Positions 2,529-10,983 of a stretch of 18,322 nucleotides of DNA are shown piece by piece. Both the position numbers and the translations under genes were made by a program. Under the pieces are notes generated by a model that ran no database searches, had not been told where the DNA came from, and saw nothing but the letters and a program-made list of their open reading frames with translations. Origin of the DNA: a virus; UHGV virus genome UHGV-0162284, one strand, 5' to 3'. Within the stretch, counting starts at the first letter, position 1. Each line of letters opens with the position of its first letter.

Positions 2529-2744
2529 ATGACGCTTGAGCGAATCAGCGCCTTTATCACGTATTGCATCGCCGTCGTGCTGGCCTGGCTGGGCGATTTG
2601 TCCATCAAGGATGCCTCAACGCTGGGCGGCCTGATGATTGGTGTACTGATGCTGGCTATCAACTGGTACTACAAACACAAAGCCTACCAGCTTCTGCGCG
2701 ACGGGCAGATTTCGCGGGAGGACTATGAATCCATCAATCGTTAA
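2529..2744 (+). CDS. Small holin, probably pinholin-type (two hydrophobic segments, charged C-terminus)
   Basis: 71-aa ORF immediately upstream of and overlapping the endolysin; two hydrophobic stretches (AFITYCIAVVLAWLG and GGLMIGVLMLAINWY) then a charged tail; not obviously the P2 gpY sequence. Confidence 0.6.
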   Translation: MTLERISAFITYCIAVVLAWLGDLSIKDASTLGGLMIGVLMLAINWYYKHKAYQLLRDGQISREDYESINR

Positions 2745-3237
2745 ACGCTGCCTTGTCGGGGCCGTGCTGGCTATTGCTGCCACGCTGCCGGGTTTTCAGC
2801 AGCTTCACACCTCCGTGGAGGGGCTGAAACTGATTGCTGATTACGAAGGCTGTCGTCTGCAGCCGTATCAGTGTAGCGCGGGTGTCTGGACCGACGGCAT
2901 TGGTAATACGTCGGGCGTCATTCCCGGCAAAACCATTACGGAGCGACAGGCAGCAGAAGGGCTGATCTCCAACGTGCTGCGTGTGGAGCGGGCGCTGGAA
3001 AGGTGTGTGAAGCAACAGCCGCCGCAGAAGGTGTATGACGCTGCGGTGTCGTTTGCCTTCAACGTGGGAACGGGCAATGCCTGCAGTTCCACACTGGTGA
3101 AATTACTCAATCAGCGGCGCTGGGCGGATGCGTGCCGACAGTTGCCGCGCTGGGTTTATGTGAAAGGTGTTTTTAATCAGGGGCTGGATAACCGCCGTGC
3201 GCGGGAGATGGCCTGGTGCTTACAGGGAGCAAACTGA
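2725..3237 (+). CDS. SAR endolysin, T4-lysozyme-like (GH24) muramidase
   Basis: 170-aa ORF with GGAGGA RBS; weakly hydrophobic Ala/Gly-rich N-terminal segment (CLVGAVLAIAATL) typical of signal-anchor-release domains; E41...T56 catalytic-region motif (ADYEGCRLQPYQCSAGVWTDGIGNT) resembling P21 R / P1 Lyz; Cys at 9, 43 and 50. Confidence 0.82.
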   Translation: MNPSIVKRCLVGAVLAIAATLPGFQQLHTSVEGLKLIADYEGCRLQPYQCSAGVWTDGIGNTSGVIPGKTITERQAAEGLISNVLRVERALERCVKQQPPQKVYDAAVSFAFNVGTGNACSSTLVKLLNQRRWADACRQLPRWVYVKGVFNQGLDNRRAREMAWCLQGAN

Positions 3238-3238
3238 A

Positions 3239-3616
3239 ATGAAAAAGAAAGTAATCAGCGGGCTGTTTCTGATGTTATGGATGGCGCTGTTGATCGCAGC
3301 AATGGTGTATCCACAGGGGATTTTTCCGGTACTGGCAGCGTCCGGTGTCTGGGTAGCCTGTCTGCTGACATGGGCGGTAATTCCGGTAGCACTGGCTGCG
3401 TTAATTAAGAACGGCCCGCTCTGGCAGGAGTTGAGGGCATCTTTGCTAAAGACCATTACCCGAAAAGAAAACGTATTTATCAGCTGGGTGATGCGATTGC
3501 TGATTGTCGTAAGTTTCGCCTGGACGGGGTGGGCTATTACCCTGGTCTTTTATCTGCTGACCGTTATTGCCTTCTGGATGATCCGTAATCAGATTGCGCA
3601 ACAGGTAGCAGCATGA
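3239..3616 (+). CDS. lysA: LysA-like membrane protein (lysis timing accessory)
   Basis: Track ORF 3167..3616; preferred ATG 3239 (MKKKVISG) two nt after the endolysin stop; 125 aa with about four hydrophobic helices; position matches P2 lysA. Confidence 0.65.
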   Translation: MKKKVISGLFLMLWMALLIAAMVYPQGIFPVLAASGVWVACLLTWAVIPVALAALIKNGPLWQELRASLLKTITRKENVFISWVMRLLIVVSFAWTGWAITLVFYLLTVIAFWMIRNQIAQQVAA

Positions 3617-4041
3617 ACCGGTTGCTGCTGGTTGTGCTGGCGTTATTACTGGCGGCGCTGCGCTGGCAGACGTGGCGGCTGGCTGATGCCAGCCAGACCA
3701 TCAGCACGCAGGCAGACGAGCTTCGGAGCAAAAGCCAGGCACTGGCAAAGAGCAACAGCCAGCTTATCAGCCTGTCCATTCTGACTGAAACCAATAACCG
3801 GGAGCAGGCGCGGCTCTATGCCGAAGCAGAACAGACCAGTGTACTGCTGAGACAACGACAACACCGGATTGAGGAACTGAAACGTGAGAACGAGGATTTA
3901 CGCCGCTGGGCTGATACTCCTTTGCCTGCTGACATTATCCGGCTGCGGGAACGCCCCACACTCACCGGAGGTGCAGCTTACCGTCAGTGGTTGTCCGCGA
4001 GTGACGCCGTGTCGGCTGGGGCAGGCAGCGCCGCGCACTAA
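3613..4041 (+). CDS. lysB: LysB, Rz-like inner-membrane spanin subunit
   Basis: 142-aa ORF overlapping the lysA stop; N-terminal TM segment (LLLVVLALLLAAL) then a coiled-coil-like charged region (EELKRENEDLRRW); position matches P2 lysB. Confidence 0.7.
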   Translation: MNRLLLVVLALLLAALRWQTWRLADASQTISTQADELRSKSQALAKSNSQLISLSILTETNNREQARLYAEAEQTSVLLRQRQHRIEELKRENEDLRRWADTPLPADIIRLRERPTLTGGAAYRQWLSASDAVSAGAGSAAH

Positions 4042-4174
4042 CGGTGACCTGAACGCGTTGCTGGATGAAACGGAGGCCGCCTGGGCGGTCTGTGCAGACA
4101 AAGTGGACATGATTATTGCGTGTCAGGAGCGAAACAGTGAACAAACCACAATCCCTGCGCCACGCCCTCAATAA
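3884..4174 (+). CDS. lysC: LysC, Rz1-like outer-membrane lipoprotein spanin subunit (starts inside lysB in another frame)
   Basis: GTG 3884 preceded by GAGGAA; signal peptide ending in lipobox L-S-G-C (AAGLILLCLLTLSGC); Pro-rich mature part; begins inside lysB and runs past its end, the overlapped spanin architecture of P2. Confidence 0.6.
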   Translation: MRTRIYAAGLILLCLLTLSGCGNAPHSPEVQLTVSGCPRVTPCRLGQAAPRTNGDLNALLDETEAAWAVCADKVDMIIACQERNSEQTTIPAPRPQ

Positions 4175-6905: not shown

Positions 6906-7503
6906 TCTGCTGCCACCGGGTTCAACACCACTGGAGCGCCGACTGGCGCAAACCTGCAGCGGGATTTCTGATCTGCAGGTGCCGCTGCGTGACTTGTGGA
7001 ATCCGGCAACCTGTCCGGTCAGTTTCCTGCCTTATCTCGCCTGGGCGTTCTCTGTAGATCGCTGGGACGAGGGCTGGACAGAAAGCGTCAAACGCCAGGT
7101 GGTGAAGGATGCTTTTTATATTCATCAACATAAAGGGACCACCAGTGCCGTGCGGCGGGTGGTGGAGCCGTTCGGCTTTCTGATCCGCATTATTGAGTGG
7201 TGGCAGACCGGAGAGGCACCGGGCACGTTTCGCCTGGATATCGGCGTGCAGGACCAGGGCATCACTGAAGATACCTATCTGGAACTTGAGCGGCTGATAA
7301 GCGATGCCAAACCATGTAGCCGTCACATGATCGGCATGTCCATCAATCTGCAGACCAGCGGCCCGCATTGGGTGGGAGCCGCCAGCTATCTTGGCGAAGA
7401 AATCACGATCTATCCGTATATCAACGAAACGATTATTTCCGGTGGCACCGCGCATGAAGGCGGGGCGGTCCATGTTATTGACACAATGAGAGTGAATCCA
7501 TGA
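6898..7503 (+). CDS. I: Baseplate/tail protein (P2 gpI family)
   Basis: 201 aa; ELWNP..TCP...LPYLAWAFSVDRWDE and GTFRLDIGV motifs match P2 gpI; overlaps the J stop and the H start. Confidence 0.9.
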   Translation: MNSLLPPGSTPLERRLAQTCSGISDLQVPLRDLWNPATCPVSFLPYLAWAFSVDRWDEGWTESVKRQVVKDAFYIHQHKGTTSAVRRVVEPFGFLIRIIEWWQTGEAPGTFRLDIGVQDQGITEDTYLELERLISDAKPCSRHMIGMSINLQTSGPHWVGAASYLGEEITIYPYINETIISGGTAHEGGAVHVIDTMRVNP

Positions 7504-9182
7504 GCACAAAATTTTATACCCTGCTGACGGATATTGGCGCGGCGAAACTTGCCAGCGCCGCCGCGCTCGGTGTGCCGCTAAAAATTACCCATATGGCGGT
7601 GGGCGATGGCGGCGGAGTATTGCCAACGCCGGACGCAAAGCAGACGGCACTGGTAAATGAGAAACGCCGGGCTGCGCTGAATATGCTTTATATCGACCCG
7701 CAGAACAGCAGCCAGATTATTGCTGAACAGGTGATCCCTGAAAACGAGGGCGGTTGGTGGATACGTGAAGTGGGCCTGTTTGATGAGTCCGGGGCATTGA
7801 TTGCCGTGGGCAACTGCCCGGAAAGCTATAAGCCGCAACTGGCTGAAGGCAGCGGGCGCACCCAGACCGTGCGCATGGTGCTGATTACCAGCAGTACGGA
7901 CAATATCACCCTGAAAATCGACCCTGCCGTTGTGCTGGCAACCCGCAAGTATGTCGATGACAAGGCACTGGAGCTGAAGGTGTACGTGGATGACCAGATG
8001 GCAAAACATCTTGCCGCACTGGACCCGCATTCGCAGTATGCACCCAAAGAAAGTCCGACGTTTACCGGAACCCCCAAAGCGCCAACGCCAGCGGCGGGGA
8101 ATAATACCACGCAGCTTGCGACCACCGCATTTGTTCAGGCGGCACTGACGGCTCTTATTAATGGTGCGCCAGCCACGCTTGACACGCTAAAAGAAATAGC
8201 CGTAGCCATTAACAATGATCCGAAATTCAGTACCACCATTAACAATGCGCTGGCACTGAAAGCGCCGCTGTCGAGTCCGGCACTCACCGGAACGCCAACA
8301 GCCCCCACGGCGGCGCAGTCGGTCAACAATACACAGATTGCCACTACGGCTTTTGTGAAATCGGCGATTGCGGCAATGGTGGGTTCTGCACCTGCGGCAC
8401 TGGATACACTGAACGAACTAGCGGCGGCGCTGGGGAATGACCCGAACTTTGCCACGACAATGCTTAATGCACTGGCAGGTAAACAACCGCTGGACAATAC
8501 GCTGACTAATTTGAGTGGAAAGGATGTTGCTGGTCTTCTCGCATACCTTGGTTTGGGAGAAGGTTCATTTGGGTTCAGAAATCTGGTTGCCTTCACAACG
8601 GCTGGAGTAACAAACTGGACTGTTCCTGAAGAGTTGCGCAAAGGAAGAAAATGTTACGTCAAAGTTATTGGTGGCGGTGCGTCAGGAGGGATAGGTTCAA
8701 CAACCGCTTCAGCCGTTACATGTGGCGGAGGAGGTGGTGGGGGCGGAGTTGCTGAGGGGCTGGTAGATTTAACTGGTATAAACAGTGTTTCGATTACGGT
8801 TGGTGCCGGTGGTGCGCCTGTGTCTGGTATTTCTGTAAACGGTAAAAATGGTGGCTCGAGCAGTTTCGGGACTTACATGTCAGCTTCCGGAGGCTATAGC
8901 GGAGGCCAGCCTTCCGGAGGGTTAGGCGCAGTTGGTGTCGGGGGAACAATTAATACATCGCTTGGGCCAGGTTCTCCAGGTTCCATTGCTTCTGCCGCAT
9001 CGGGAGCTGGTAATGGTGGTTCTGGTGGTGGCCCCGGAGGAGCAGGTTCATTCAGAGATACAGCTAACGGAAAAGCGGTATCAGCAGTTGGGCCTGGAGG
9101 TGGCGGTGCTGGATTATGTCCTAATTCATCAACGGGTCAGTCGGGTGCCGGAGCAGATGGCGCAGTTTATATTTACTGGTGA
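7500..9182 (+). CDS. H: Tail fibre protein (P2 gpH family): conserved N-terminal shaft fused, in the present orientation, to a glycine-rich C-terminal tip
   Basis: 560 aa; N-terminus (MSTKFYTLLTDIGAAKLASAA...MAVGDGGG...ESYKPQLAEGSGR) and NDPNFATTMLNALAGKQP match P2 gpH; similarity ends at LGLGEGS, where the crossover site lies; the ~190-aa C-terminus is Gly/Ser-rich with a GGGGGGGG run. Confidence 0.9.
   Translation: MSTKFYTLLTDIGAAKLASAAALGVPLKITHMAVGDGGGVLPTPDAKQTALVNEKRRAALNMLYIDPQNSSQIIAEQVIPENEGGWWIREVGLFDESGALIAVGNCPESYKPQLAEGSGRTQTVRMVLITSSTDNITLKIDPAVVLATRKYVDDKALELKVYVDDQMAKHLAALDPHSQYAPKESPTFTGTPKAPTPAAGNNTTQLATTAFVQAALTALINGAPATLDTLKEIAVAINNDPKFSTTINNALALKAPLSSPALTGTPTAPTAAQSVNNTQIATTAFVKSAIAAMVGSAPAALDTLNELAAALGNDPNFATTMLNALAGKQPLDNTLTNLSGKDVAGLLAYLGLGEGSFGFRNLVAFTTAGVTNWTVPEELRKGRKCYVKVIGGGASGGIGSTTASAVTCGGGGGGGGVAEGLVDLTGINSVSITVGAGGAPVSGISVNGKNGGSSSFGTYMSASGGYSGGQPSGGLGAVGVGGTINTSLGPGSPGSIASAASGAGNGGSGGGPGGAGSFRDTANGKAVSAVGPGGGGAGLCPNSSTGQSGAGADGAVYIYW
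8536..8561 (+). repeat. Left recombination site of the invertible segment (gix/hix-like 26-bp imperfect palindrome)
   Basis: TTCTCGCATACC-TT-GGTTTGGGAGAA inside H (codes ...AYLGLGE); matches the reverse complement of 10336..10361 at 19 of 26 positions, with the same central TT. Confidence 0.65.
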
Positions 9183-9189
9183 GGTTCAT

Positions 9190-9360
9190 ATGTGGGCAAG
9201 AATTGAAGAAAATAAAGTAGAAGAGATAACGGAAATTAATCCTGAAGGAAGATTCCATCCATCATTAATATGGAAAGAATGCCCTGCTGACACACAGCAG
9301 GGGGATTTATATATTGATGGTGAGTTTATTGTGCAGTCTCCGGCAGTTCAGGCCAGATAA
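9190..9360 (+). CDS. Small hypothetical protein (57 aa) coupled to H; candidate minimal chaperone/accessory for the Gly-rich tip, or a remnant
   Basis: ATG 9190 lies 8 nt after the H stop behind GGTGAGG; clearly AT-richer than the flanks by eye; the track's 142-aa ORF 8932..9360 is an in-frame extension overlapping H and is not favoured. No family recognised by eye. Confidence 0.3.
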   Translation: MWARIEENKVEEITEINPEGRFHPSLIWKECPADTQQGDLYIDGEFIVQSPAVQAR

Positions 9361-9934
9361 CATCCGGCGCGGTGCTGGTATCTGTTGCCGTCACCGCGTC
9401 AATGTAATCCAGCACAGCGTTAAGTCTGGTTGTTTCTGCCTGCGTCAGTTTACGTCCGGCCTGCAATTTCAGTTGAATCAGACTGATGGAAGCCATTGCT
9501 GCATCAATCAGTGACTGGCGCTGTGCTTCTGCCGCTTCTACTGCGGCACCGTGTTGTGCCTCAGTATCTGTCACCCATTTTTCACCATCCCATTTATCGT
9601 GTGGCGTTAACGGGGCGATAGTGGTTGTATTTTCGGGATAGTCGCCTAGTGCTGTGATTTCTTTGGCATCTCCCGTTTCGGTGTTATAGACGATTTCACC
9701 GCGATGGTCTGACACATATTCCCATGATTTTAAATCCACAGAACGGCAAATTGTATAACCAGCCTTAGATGTAACAGGAGCGTCTAAACAGGAATATGCT
9801 GGAATACCGACACCCACTGCAAGATATTCAGTTGATGCAGAAATATATTCCCGCGTCTCACCATCATAGTTATAGACGGTAATATTCCCCGCCTTCGTGG
9901 CAATAAACTCGCTATTTAATACGGCGTTATCCAT
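9326..9934 (-). CDS. Tail fibre assembly chaperone (Tfa / Mu U / P2 gpG-like), paired with the alternative fibre tip
   Basis: 202 aa on the minus strand; C-terminal region (LIQLKLQAGRKLTQAE...RLNAVLDYIDAV...APDVIWPELP) is typical of Caudovirales tail-fibre assembly proteins; its start overlaps the stop of the upstream minus-strand cassette (TAATG). Confidence 0.78.
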   Translation of the reverse strand: MDNAVLNSEFIATKAGNITVYNYDGETREYISASTEYLAVGVGIPAYSCLDAPVTSKAGYTICRSVDLKSWEYVSDHRGEIVYNTETGDAKEITALGDYPENTTTIAPLTPHDKWDGEKWVTDTEAQHGAAVEAAEAQRQSLIDAAMASISLIQLKLQAGRKLTQAETTRLNAVLDYIDAVTATDTSTAPDVIWPELPETAQ

Positions 9935-10389
9935 TATGCAGCCCTCACGATAAAGTTAAATGCAATATTTCGTGGACGGGTTTCACTCCCGCCATATGAT
10001 GATGTAAATCCCGAATATGCCCGGTGTCCCGCATCCGTCGTATTAGCCCAGGAAGGACCGCTAGAAGTATAGATGACCCCATTGTAATCATGGCCGTGTG
10101 CCTCAATGCTCCCGTCCTGCGCAGACAGGAGAGTCCGTCCTGAATCAATTCCTCTTCCATCATCCCACCCACGAATGAATTCGCCGCGTAAATCTGGCAA
10201 TTTATTTGTCGGATAAACTTTTGCCAGTTCCGGATACTCTTCGGCAGAAAAAGCTGCACCGTTGCATTTCAGCCAGCCTGTTGGCGGTGTGACTGAAGGC
10301 CACGGAACAGGTACGCCAACAGGCAATGCTGAGCCTTCTCCTAAACCAACGTTTAAGAAAATGCAGATGTAACGGCTAACTGGCATCAT
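9934..10389 (-). CDS. Alternative tail-fibre C-terminal cassette (Sv'-like, tail-collar-type receptor-binding region); promoterless until inversion fuses it to H
   Basis: Minus-strand ORF carries GLGEGS at residues 15-20, the same junction peptide as H at the left site; downstream PVPWP...GWLKCNGAAFS..YPELAKVYP...LPDLRGEFIRGWDDGRG matches the phage tail-collar pattern. The first 14 codons of the track ORF are probably not translated in vivo. Confidence 0.72.
   Translation of the reverse strand: MMPVSRYICIFLNVGLGEGSALPVGVPVPWPSVTPPTGWLKCNGAAFSAEEYPELAKVYPTNKLPDLRGEFIRGWDDGRGIDSGRTLLSAQDGSIEAHGHDYNGVIYTSSGPSWANTTDAGHRAYSGFTSSYGGSETRPRNIAFNFIVRAA
10336..10361 (-). repeat. Right recombination site of the invertible segment (gix/hix-like)
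   Basis: Plus strand TTCTCCTAAACCAACGTTTAAGAAAA; its reverse complement TTTTCTTAAACG-TT-GGTTTAGGAGAA aligns with the left site; lies ~50 bp upstream of the invertase start. Confidence 0.65.
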
Positions 10390-10410
10390 CTCCGGTTTTT
10401 ATTCAGGGGG

Positions 10411-10983
10411 ATGATCATGCTTATTGGCTATGTACGCGTGTCAACAAATGACCAGAACACCGATTTGCAACGTAATGCACTGAACTGCGCGGGATGTGAG
10501 CGGATTTTTGAGGATAAAATCAGTGGCACTAAGTCCGACAGACCGGGGCTGAAAAAACTGCTCAGGACACTATCGGCAGGAGACACGCTGGTTGTCTGGA
10601 AGCTGGACAGGTTGGGGCGCAGTATGCGGCATCTTGTTACGCTGATAGAAGAGTTACGCCAGCGTGGCGTGAATTTCCGAAGCCTGACTGACAGTATTGA
10701 TACCAGCACCCCAATGGGCCGTTTCTTTTTTCATGTCATGGGGGCTCTGGCTGAAATGGAACGCGAACTGATAGTTGAACGTACCAGGGCGGGGCTGGCT
10801 GCAGCTCGTGTTAAAGGCAGAGTAGGTGGACGCCGTCCTAAGTTGACCAGCGAACAGTGGGCACAGATTGGGCGTTTACTCGAGGCTGGAGAATCAAGAC
10901 AGCGTATTGCACTGATTTTTGATGTAGGCGTTTCTACCATTTATAGAAAATTTCTGGCCAATAAGAGCATTGAATCCCCCTGA
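10411..10983 (+). CDS. Serine recombinase, DNA invertase (Hin/Gin/Cin/Pin family)
   Basis: 190 aa; N-terminal catalytic motif IGYVRVSTNDQ with the active-site Ser, then GDTLVVWKLDRLGRS, and a C-terminal HTH (QRIALIFDVGVSTIYRKF); length and layout are those of Hin/Gin. True start may be ATG 10417. Confidence 0.95.
   Translation: MIMLIGYVRVSTNDQNTDLQRNALNCAGCERIFEDKISGTKSDRPGLKKLLRTLSAGDTLVVWKLDRLGRSMRHLVTLIEELRQRGVNFRSLTDSIDTSTPMGRFFFHVMGALAEMERELIVERTRAGLAAARVKGRVGGRRPKLTSEQWAQIGRLLEAGESRQRIALIFDVGVSTIYRKFLANKSIESP

Follow-up and report, generated by a model that had tools for sequence, protein, structure and literature searches.

The window, a stretch of 18,322 nucleotides from UHGV virus genome UHGV-0162284 given as one strand, contains a run of five genes that together form a lysis cassette. 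These genes, which all lie on the plus strand, as do the features located below, encode a 71-aa holin (2529..2744), a 170-aa endolysin (2725..3237), a 125-aa multi-pass membrane protein that occupies the position of lysA (3239..3616), the 142-aa i-spanin LysB (3613..4041), and the 96-aa o-spanin LysC (3884..4174). The cassette resides in a late operon, with tail gene X on one side and tail gene R on the other, and is carried by approximately 19% of complete E. coli genomes.

Profile searches place the first protein in the HP1 holin family, with a score of 36.7 bits against PF16080 (E 4.3e-9; gathering cut-off 28.8) and a match to the phrog_20 holin at E 1.9e-26; its RefSeq name is likewise 'HP1 family phage holin'. 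An earlier reading of the DNA made without database searches (hereafter the sequence-only reading) had described a two-helix holin of 71 residues, and hydropathy analysis agrees, revealing hydrophobic segments at residues 6-22 (TMD1, ISAFITYCIAVVLAWLG, 2544..2594) and 30-48 (TMD2, 2616..2672). The charged sequence KHK occurs right after TMD2, as expected for a small class II holin, and the predicted topology would place a short loop in the periplasm and the charged C-terminus in the cytoplasm. TMD2 carries a small-xxx-small zipper, S30-G34-G38, which is kept in the form [SA]30-[GA]34-[GA]38 in all eight of the holin family members aligned. Comparison with the S21-family holin EssD by hhalign (probability 50%, E 1.6e-4) brings TMD2 into register, such that G34 and G38 match EssD S44 and G48 while EssD G40 is placed opposite a gap. 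A distant relationship to the S21 family is plausible from this alignment, although the zipper constitutes weak evidence because such motifs are common in TMDs, and the score against the S21 holin profile PF04971 (23.2 bits) lies below its cut-off of 26. S21 itself employs a dual start and has a TMD1 rich in Gly, Ala, and Ser. The holin described here lacks a Met-Lys-x-Met motif and has just one start codon, and its TMD1 (KD16 2.28, 31% Gly/Ala/Ser/Thr) is not obviously SAR-like (SAR, signal-anchor-release), unlike the Gly/Ala/Ser-rich TMD1 of EssD.

The sequence-only reading had also proposed that this protein is a pinholin, a call whose support comes from homology only: the protein exceeds the PF16080 gathering score, and the family prototype, HP1 Hol, has been identified in experiments as a pinholin that acts alongside a SAR endolysin, being lethal, non-lytic, and required for lysis, with no leakage of β-galactosidase (PMC7312051). 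The presence of a SAR endolysin does not in itself prove that the holin is a pinholin, because such endolysins also work with large-hole holins or with no holin, as illustrated by P1 Lyz, which cooperates both with the pinholin LydD and with two canonical holins, LydA and LydC (PMC9025707), and by the SAR endolysin of Mu, which functions without a holin (PMC9239132). It is therefore conceivable, if somewhat unlikely, that a SAR endolysin is coupled at this locus to a conventional class II holin that forms large holes. Such a holin would accord with a TMD1 that is not weakly hydrophobic like that of S21 and with the sub-threshold PF04971 score and the 50% hhalign probability, and the HP1 evidence for small holes is confined to the failure of the 520-kDa β-galactosidase to leak, from a holin whose reported topology is unusual (PMC7312051). 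Nevertheless, the prototype does act as a pinholin, and TMD2 of the present holin is zipper-like and in register with the S21 family. Moreover, the pairing is strict, in that the endolysin adjoining the holin has a Cys-bearing N-terminal segment in 9/9 cassettes examined, and relative to P2 the two genes are exchanged as one module, replacing Y and K together while lysB and lysC remain homologous. We favor the assignment as a probable pinholin.

The reading frame of the endolysin (2725..3237) overlaps the 3′ end of the holin gene by 20 nt, and its Shine-Dalgarno sequence, GGGAGGA (2716..2722), lies inside that same 3′ end; a G-rich element is found at this place in relatives. Among Fels-2 and phages of Klebsiella, Yersinia, and Erwinia, the third-base changes in codons 7-16 are synonymous, and because these codons vary while the amino acids are kept, the ATG at 2725 represents the real start. 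A start at GTG 2764, as used in ON470620, was rejected, since the codons upstream of it are under purifying selection and the ATG is served by a strong Shine-Dalgarno sequence.

The encoded protein is a GH24 lysozyme (PF00959, E 4.6e-40) whose best PDB sequence matches are two entries for P1 Lyz, 1XJT (E 2e-26) and 1XJU (E 5e-25). These are the active and inactive forms, respectively, of the enzyme that is the class I SAR endolysin prototype. The segment EGCR..PY.C.AGVWTDGIGNT aligns residue for residue between the endolysin and P1 Lyz, and it contains a catalytic and regulatory motif, E41-G-C43-x6-C50-x5-T56 (2845..2892), in which E41, C43, C50, and T56 fall on P1 E42, C44, C51, and T57. The equivalence of C43 and C50 to P1 C44 and C51, which the sequence-only reading had based on spacing, is thus borne out by alignment, and Cys9, Glu41, Cys43, and Cys50 are all found at the positions it named. 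Its description of C43 and C50 as flanking E41 is incorrect, however, as both residues are C-terminal to E41 and C50 is the triad cysteine. Cysteines that flank the Glu are the basis of the caging model for Lyz103, which differs from the P1 type. The triad of the present enzyme, E41-x8-C50-x5-T56, has the Glu-8x-Cys-5x-Thr form of the E-8-D/C-5-T triad described in the literature (PMC4640515; PMC3556154), and a MAFFT alignment that includes P7 and P1 Lyz and HP1 Lys reveals E41, G42, C43, C50, T56, C137, and C165 to be invariant. An AlphaFold model of the protein (pLDDT 94 overall, 94-97 for residues 11-30) was compared with known structures using Foldseek, yielding a TM score of 0.86 over 173 columns for active 1XJT and of 0.57 for inactive 1XJU. 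Residues 11-30 are packed onto the body of the model, which suggests that the N-terminal segment would form part of an active-like fold.

The N-terminus begins with a short region that resembles a SAR domain, in which K7 and R8 precede a weakly hydrophobic core, C9-F24 (CLVGAVLAIAATLPGF, 2743..2796). This arrangement, with 2-3 basic residues ahead of an uncharged, weakly hydrophobic stretch in which Gly, Ala, Ser, and Thr are abundant, is among the criteria quoted for SAR domains, for which release by S21 68 is the definitive test (PMC9239132). The core comprises 16 residues with a KD value of 2.11 and a Gly/Ala/Ser/Thr share of 44%, compared with 44% for P1, 56% for HP1, and only 19-25% for the genuine TMDs found in LysA and LysB. 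The sequence-only reading had called residues 9-21 (CLVGAVLAIAATL) rich in both Ala and Gly; with 4 Ala, 1 Gly, and 1 Thr, the segment is indeed Ala-rich, but the Gly part of that description does not hold. The uncharged stretch extends over residues 9-31, and the hydrophobic core is short, at 13-16 residues here and 14 uncharged residues in EtG, Midge, and RCIP0057. In length this core is nearer to the h-region of a signal peptide than to a normal TMD. A lipoprotein signal was also considered and rejected, as no lipobox precedes Cys9 (IVKRC).

Seven cysteines are present in the endolysin, at positions 9, 43, 50, 94, 120, 137, and 165, and all of them are kept in seven P2-like relatives with 62-91% identity, which indicates that these features are not due to chance. 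Cys9 (codon TGC, 2749..2751) would supply the SAR-domain thiol as the counterpart of P1 Lyz Cys13. Its codon varies synonymously between TGC and TGT among relatives, and the residue is invariant, as is C43, its prospective partner, in the alignment of P2-like relatives. The distance from the N-terminal Cys to the catalytic Glu is 32 residues here, 29 in P1, and 36 in HP1. For a broader survey, family diversity was sampled from a protein library clustered at 50% identity, and 16/16 full-length SAR-type relatives of less than 60% identity carry a Cys where the hydrophobic segment begins, at a distance of 29-32 residues from the Glu that follows (36 in HP1). Three exceptional SAR-type relatives without an N-terminal Cys, two of which have six cysteines, look like gene calls truncated at the 5′ end. 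Given the P1 Lyz entry 1XJT as best PDB match, the conserved N-terminal Cys, and the predicted fold, the conclusion that the protein is a P1 Lyz-type SAR endolysin, reached also in the sequence-only reading, is strongly supported.

In P1 Lyz, the disulfide bond reportedly switches from C44-C51 to C13-C44 upon activation. Residue equivalence suggests that the present endolysin would be activated by an analogous isomerization, in which C9-C43 replaces C43-C50. Alternatively, the enzyme might be governed by topology and refolding alone, as is R21, which has an E-D-T triad and no SAR Cys, with the cysteines of the present enzyme being structural or vestigial. SAR endolysins are not the sole carriers of the C43/C50 pair, which also occurs in approximately 20 of 64 soluble relatives that have no N-terminal extension and could not use such a switch. 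When linkage of the pair to the SAR Cys was examined with a Fisher test (16/3/1/1, p = 0.35), the test had no power; the search neighborhood is almost entirely P1-type. We nonetheless regard control by refolding only as distinctly unlikely, considering that both cysteines are found in 19 of 21 SAR-like relatives, with every full-length one adding the SAR Cys, and that this Cys is invariant despite synonymous codon changes. In addition, C50 is the residue at the Asp/Cys site of the triad, where the corresponding Cys of P1 is blocked by a disulfide until activation (PMC3556154).

Highly improbable is the proposal that the N-terminal segment is a cleaved Sec signal peptide, leaving a soluble periplasmic lysozyme restrained solely by cell energization or the C43-C50 disulfide: the short core, a conserved A-x-A motif (A16-I17-A18), the signal peptide that SignalP predicts for HP1 Lys (PMC7312051), and the precedent of T4 RI, long deemed a SAR protein and then proved to be cleaved (PMC8385771), could all be cited in its favor, but the motif sits midway along the hydrophobic core rather than at its periplasmic end, the number of cysteines is odd (seven) as in P1 Lyz, the model folds residues 11-30 into the body, matching the crystal structure of uncleaved, active P1 Lyz, and a disposable peptide would not be expected to keep an invariant Cys 29-32 residues from the active site across clusters of less than 50% identity.

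Downstream of the endolysin, the protein in the lysA position (3239..3616) belongs to the DNZ54_00345 family (NF038378, E 8.4e-37; phrog_162, E 5.6e-43) and appears by eye to have approximately four TMDs. The sequence-only reading had called the gene lysA. Its product has a multi-pass hydrophobic profile and is encoded at the lysA position, and its similarity to P2 LysA is marginal (BLASTP E 1e-3 over 35 aa), as is that to the LysA homolog of Midge (E 6e-4 over 29 aa). The protein is a candidate regulator that probably tunes the timing of lysis. Open reading frames of 296 aa that fuse the endolysin to this protein are present in public data, and a programmed frameshift was considered as their source; because they exhibit at least three different junctions, this explanation was dropped.

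LysB (3613..4041) is an Rz-like i-spanin with an N-terminal TMD (TIGR03495, E 7.6e-50; phrog_89) that shares 33% identity with P2 LysB over 75 aa. LysC (3884..4174) is an Rz1-like o-spanin lipoprotein (NF038368, E 1.2e-36, profile positions 2-85 covering residues 5-88; PF23793) with 45% identity to P2 LysC. It initiates at GTG 3884, has the sequence GAGGA 8 nt upstream of this codon, and bears the lipobox LSGC with Cys21. Rather than being embedded in another gene, as the sequence-only reading had it, lysC extends 133 nt beyond the lysB stop codon and also overlaps the start of gpR. The pair constitutes a two-component spanin of the P2 LysB/LysC type; within the overlapped class, P2 serves as the type example (PMC6139136).

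Taken as a whole, the sequence-only reading is upheld in essence, and the region quite likely represents the lysis cassette of a P2-like prophage (Peduoviridae) resembling Fels-2, and would operate as follows, by analogy with P1 Lyz, HP1 Hol/Lys, and S21/R21. The 170-aa endolysin would be exported by Sec and, its weakly hydrophobic signal-anchor remaining uncleaved, would be tethered to the inner membrane in an N-in/C-out orientation, with K7 and R8 in the cytoplasm and C9-F24 in the bilayer. In this state it would be inactive, as the triad Cys50 would be locked in a disulfide with Cys43, and Cys9, at the cytoplasmic edge of the bilayer, would be beyond the reach of the periplasmic Dsb system. 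The HP1-family class II holin would build up and, at a set time, depolarize the membrane, most likely via small 'pinholes', whereupon the SAR segment would exit the bilayer and refold onto the catalytic domain. Attack by Cys9 on the C43-C50 disulfide would then generate C9-C43 and free Cys50, permitting the active lysozyme to degrade the murein, after which LysB and LysC, as i-spanin and o-spanin, would disrupt the outer membrane. The multi-TMD protein in the lysA position would probably tune the timing of these events.

The unusually short membrane segment and the location of the regulatory Cys at the cytoplasmic K-R boundary might also be read as signs that Fels-2/PsP3-type enzymes form a sub-type of their own among class I SAR endolysins, with release controlled differently from that of P1 Lyz, possibly by the lysA-position protein. 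If so, the DNZ54_00345-family protein could be a dedicated regulator, akin to a 'releasin', rather than a P2-type antiholin. We consider this sub-type proposal improbable.

The discovery value of the cassette is small, since the paradigm of pinholin and SAR endolysin has already been established through phage 21, P1, and HP1, and the practical value of this analysis lies in annotation. The RefSeq label for the endolysin is merely 'lysozyme', PHROG 162 tags the lysA-position membrane protein as 'endolysin', and some phage records start the endolysin 11-13 codons late, thereby deleting the SAR segment and Cys9. For antibacterial use, it is relevant that the N-terminal segment and three cysteines probably control endolysin activity, and that the gene, in its full-length form, will probably be toxic to E. 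coli.

Related loci were compared by tblastn of a phage collection and by examination of nine loci; a search with the holin alignment recovered 80 loci, all with 100% identical holins. Like the present cassette, the P2 lysis genes (Y-K-lysA-lysB-lysC) occupy this position in the late operon and include overlapped spanin genes, with lysB (33%) and lysC (45%) being homologous. They differ in that Y, a holin of 93 aa, has another sequence, K is a soluble endolysin that lacks an N-terminal hydrophobic segment and shows no similarity to the one here, and the similarity in lysA is marginal. Lambdoid phage 21 (S21/R21) and DLP12 (EssD/RrrD), each combining a pinholin with a class II SAR endolysin, share with the present system 71-aa class II holins whose TMD2 small-residue zippers are in register, and the architecture of a GH24 SAR endolysin (3HDE and 4ZPU, TM 0.74-0.79), although the holin here fails the PF04971 cut-off.

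The resemblance to P1 Lyz encompasses the GH24 fold, the E-8-C-5-T triad with its adjacent regulatory Cys, a Cys in the SAR segment, and a total of seven cysteines (13, 44, 51, 91, 118, 150, and 178 in P1), the last two of which align with C137 and C165; the endolysin model also superposes on active Lyz, N-terminal segment included. The two proteins are 35-37% identical. Moreover, the SAR core has 16 residues here as opposed to approximately 24 uncharged core residues in P1, Cys9 follows directly after K7 R8, the 11-residue insertion after FNVG is lacking, and the middle cysteines (C94/C120 vs. P1 C91/C118) fall in different alignment columns. Gene order is distinct as well: P1 lyz is unlinked from the main holin and followed by the pinholin gene lydD (PMC9025707). 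Haemophilus phage HP1, which is also P2-like (Peduoviridae), has a holin of family PF16080 without a dual-start antiholin, encoded immediately upstream of and overlapping the gene for a P1-type endolysin with seven cysteines and a SAR Cys. Its holin and endolysin are 26% and 34% identical to those described here, its cassette follows the tail tube gene, and it has neither a lysA-position gene nor a recognized lysC.

The closest counterparts are found in Fels-2 (STM2716/STM2715), Klebsiella phage KP12, and Escherichia phages Cartapus and Midge, which share the order X-hol-lys-(lysA)-lysB-lysC-R. No experimental tests of these four cassettes were found in the searchable literature. KP12.peg.319, which is near-identical to the endolysin, has been described in print as resembling P1 Lyz and carrying a conserved SAR domain (PMC9902359). 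Depositions of related P2-like phages carry the annotation 'SAR endolysin / class II holin'; for Midge, the CPT annotation is 'holin class II / SAR endolysin / putative antiholin / i-spanin / o-spanin'. The Fels-2 holin and endolysin are 80% and 91% identical to those in the window, with the endolysin start annotated 11 codons late and the lysA-position gene split, and KP12 exhibits 96.6% nucleotide identity. The four differ from the present cassette only allelically, and the system is an already known one, the usual lysis genes of a P2-like prophage that is very common in E. coli.

The 18.3-kb window corresponds to the late region of a P2-like prophage (Peduoviridae), with its morphogenesis and lysis genes. 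In it, N (capsid; 50-1108), M (1112-1762), L (to 2322) and X (2322-2525) are followed by a holin gene (2529-2744), an endolysin gene (2725-3237), a membrane protein gene in the lysA position (3239-3616), lysB (3613-4041), lysC (3884-4174) and, from ~4137 onwards, R, S, V, W, J, I, H, sheath, tube, tape measure, U and D. Over its 1.9 kb, the lysis block matches one E. coli chromosome at 99.9% identity; of 5426 complete E. coli genomes, 1038 carry it at high identity, mostly 95-99%, and it shares 96-97% identity with Klebsiella and Escherichia P2-like phages, KP12, 4LV2017, Cartapus and vB_EcoM-813R9 among them. The window also holds a tail-fibre switching region (7500-10983). Tail fibre gene H (7500-9182) and a serine recombinase gene (10411-10983; Resolvase and HTH_7) bound it on the plus strand, and the minus strand between them carries a Collar-domain fibre C-terminal exon (9934-10389) as well as a gene for tail-fibre assembly (9326-9934). 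A 14-nt inverted repeat (8711-8724 / 10364-10377) is a candidate for the inversion sites.

The endolysin is a GH24 lysozyme (PF00959, E 4.6e-40) for which a PDB sequence search returned two P1 Lyz structures as the best matches (E 2e-26 and 5e-25), ranked above R21, RrrD and soluble lysozymes. Its EGCR..PY.C.AGVWTDGIGNT block aligns with P1 Lyz without gaps, and residues E41, G42, C43, C50, T56, C137 and C165 are invariant in a MAFFT alignment with P7/P1 Lyz and Lys of the Haemophilus phage HP1. These invariant columns equate C43 with P1 C44 and C50 with P1 C51, a correspondence that the sequence-only reading had proposed and that both the alignment and the PDB match bear out. All the figures in that reading check out, the positions of Glu41, Cys43 and Cys50 among them, but it had the two cysteines flanking Glu41; both are in fact downstream of it. 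In the described catalytic triad, E-8x-D/C-5x-T (PMC4640515, PMC3556154), C50 is the Asp/Cys residue.

The endolysin contains seven cysteines, as do P1 Lyz and HP1 Lys, a number that would fit three disulfides and one free thiol. In a 2005 paper on P1 Lyz, the inhibitory bond is reportedly C44-C51, which after release is said to be attacked by Cys13 of the signal-anchor-release (SAR) segment, yielding C13-C44 and free C51. The last pair, C137 and C165, aligns to P1 C150 and C178. The middle pair, Cys94 (3004-3006) and Cys120 (3082-3084), is kept in all P2-like relatives and is offset from the pairs of P1 (a few residues from C91/C118, on both sides) and HP1, which suggests that C94/C120 may be a structural disulfide repositioned in a coordinated way.

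Relatives of the endolysin were drawn from a library clustered at 50% and joined by P7/P1 Lyz and HP1 Lys; the 105 with <60% identity, these two included, were mapped onto the endolysin. A SAR-like N-terminus is present in 21 of these; 19 of the 21 have equivalents of both C43 and C50, and 16 of the 19 carry a further cysteine at the start of the hydrophobic segment, 29-32 residues upstream of the catalytic Glu (36 in HP1). In the other three, the N-terminus is devoid of basic residues and looks truncated, and these look like mis-called starts; two of them have six cysteines rather than the usual seven, as would be expected. All seven cysteines are kept in seven P2-like phages at 62-91% identity. 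The EGC..C pair (EGC-x6-C) also occurs in ~20 of 64 soluble GH24 relatives that have no N-terminal extension, which fits the suggested descent of soluble Cys-triad enzymes from P1-like SAR enzymes (PMC3556154); another 20 have the catalytic cysteine alone. The pair by itself is thus non-diagnostic, and the defining signature is the pair together with the SAR-borne cysteine.

The 170-aa endolysin begins at an ATG inside the last 20 nt of the holin gene, preceded by GGGAGGA, and its N-terminus reads MNPSIVKR-CLVGAVLAIAATLPGF-QQLHTSV. Public records sometimes put the start at codon 12 or 14; in Fels-2 (NC_010463, locus L085 2397-2906) and vB_EcoM-813R9 (ON470620, locus L002 1965-2438) it is 11-13 codons late, with loss of K7, R8, C9 and half of the SAR segment. 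Among Salmonella, Klebsiella, Yersinia and Erwinia phages, K7-R8-C9-L-V-G-A is unchanged despite synonymous third-position variation (AAA/AAG, CGC/CGT, TGC/TGT, CTT/CTG, GGG/GGC), and the codons upstream of the late-called starts are therefore translated.

In this N-terminal segment, K7 and R8 precede a 16-residue core that is 44% Gly/Ala/Ser/Thr, compared with 44% in P1, 56% in HP1, and 19-25% in the transmembrane helices of LysA and LysB of the same cassette. Judged by sequence alone, the segment could also be a cleaved signal peptide: its core is short, comprising only 14 uncharged residues in EtG and Midge, it contains an A-x-A motif, and T4 RI offers a cautionary precedent (PMC8385771). 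However, the motif lies mid-core rather than at the end of the hydrophobic core, and the odd cysteine count also speaks against cleavage. Moreover, clusters less than 50% identical keep the N-terminal cysteine at a constant spacing from the active site, which would be very difficult to explain if the segment were a signal peptide that is discarded. An AlphaFold model built from a 50-sequence alignment (mean pLDDT 94) likewise argues against cleavage, as it packs residues 11-30 (pLDDT 94-97) against the body of the enzyme. Foldseek matched this model first to active P1 Lyz (1XJT; TM 0.86 over 173 aligned columns, including the N-terminal segment), with secreted inactive 1XJU at a TM of only 0.57; the same likeness to P1 Lyz has been published for the near-identical KP12.peg.319 (PMC9902359). 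We conclude that the protein is very probably a class I SAR endolysin.

The upstream holin is 71 aa long, as the sequence-only reading had it, and residues 6-22 and 30-48 form its hydrophobic segments. It passes the threshold of the HP1 holin family PF16080 (36.7 bits; gathering score 28.8) and falls narrowly below that of the S21 family PF04971 (23.2 bits; gathering score 26); its RefSeq name is 'HP1 family phage holin'. Eight family members, compared as a profile with the sequence of EssD, the S21-family holin of DLP12, gave a probability of 50% (E 1.6e-4) in an alignment through both transmembrane domains (TMDs), with N45, Y47, K49 and K51 aligned and G34 and G38 placed on S44 and G48 of the EssD zipper G40-S44-G48, whose G40 falls in a gap; [SA]30-[GA]34-[GA]38 is present in all eight. 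Experiments on the family prototype, HP1 Hol, showed it to be lethal and non-lytic in E. coli, to cause no beta-galactosidase leakage and to be needed for lysis in Haemophilus; its partner is a Sec-dependent SAR endolysin (PMC7312051). An adjoining endolysin with a Cys-bearing N-terminal segment was found in all nine cassettes examined (the window, Fels-2, ST13-OXA48phi12.1, YenM_56.17, EtG, Midge, RCIP0057, HP1 and P7), and in P7 the neighbouring lydD encodes a proven pinholin (PMC9025707). These features moderately favour a pinholin. A firm call is tempered by four points: the hydrophobicity of TMD1 is ordinary, whereas TMD1 of S21 is SAR-like; a dual-start antiholin is absent; the HP1 experiments are limited; and SAR endolysins also work with no holin at all (PMC9239132) or with one that makes large holes (PMC9025707).

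Downstream, LysB (TIGR03495) and LysC (NF038368; lipobox LSGC with Cys21) constitute a P2-type overlapped two-component spanin. The lysC gene opens with GTG at 3884 (GAGGA 8 nt upstream), 158 nt ahead of the lysB stop at 4041, and ends 133 nt beyond that stop; lysC is accordingly not embedded, as had been supposed and as in lambda, but overlapped as in P2 (PMC6139136). At its 3' end, 38 nt are shared with tail gene R, whose GTG start is at 4137. With the start that RefSeq gives lysC (window 3926; locus L001 4627-4875), the signal peptide loses its n-region.

The gene in the lysA position encodes a hydrophobic, multi-TMD protein of 125 aa (NCBIfam DNZ54_00345) with only marginal similarity to P2 LysA, and is probably a dispensable timing regulator; PHROG 162 labels it 'endolysin'. 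This gene varies among otherwise syntenic cassettes: ST13-OXA48phi12.1 and YenM_56.17 lack it, Fels-2 has it split into two small ORFs, and Midge and EtG carry a 143-aa P2-LysA-like protein in its place. Public assemblies contain many ORFs of 277-296 aa (e.g. P0006, P0010, P0012) that join endolysin residues 1 to ~160 to a LysA-like membrane protein via 1-nt indels within window 3195-3241. A programmed fusion was rejected, given at least three different junctions; some of these ORFs come from complete genomes. The prophage has been sampled very heavily, and the fusions look like assembly errors or frameshifts that arose independently.

The sequence-only reading of this cassette is correct and describes something already known, as the same cassette appears in the records of other phages: the Fels-2 endolysin is annotated 'similar to P1 Lyz', Midge and RCIP0057 carry the labels 'SAR endolysin' and 'holin class II', and the published description of KP12 is of a P1-like enzyme whose SAR domain is conserved (PMC9902359). 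In P2, holin Y (93 aa) and soluble K both lack similarity to the window's holin and endolysin, whereas lysB and lysC are still homologous, the holin and endolysin having been swapped together. Every element of the cassette has a characterised or annotated counterpart in P1 Lyz, HP1 Hol/Lys, S21/R21 or P2 LysB/LysC.
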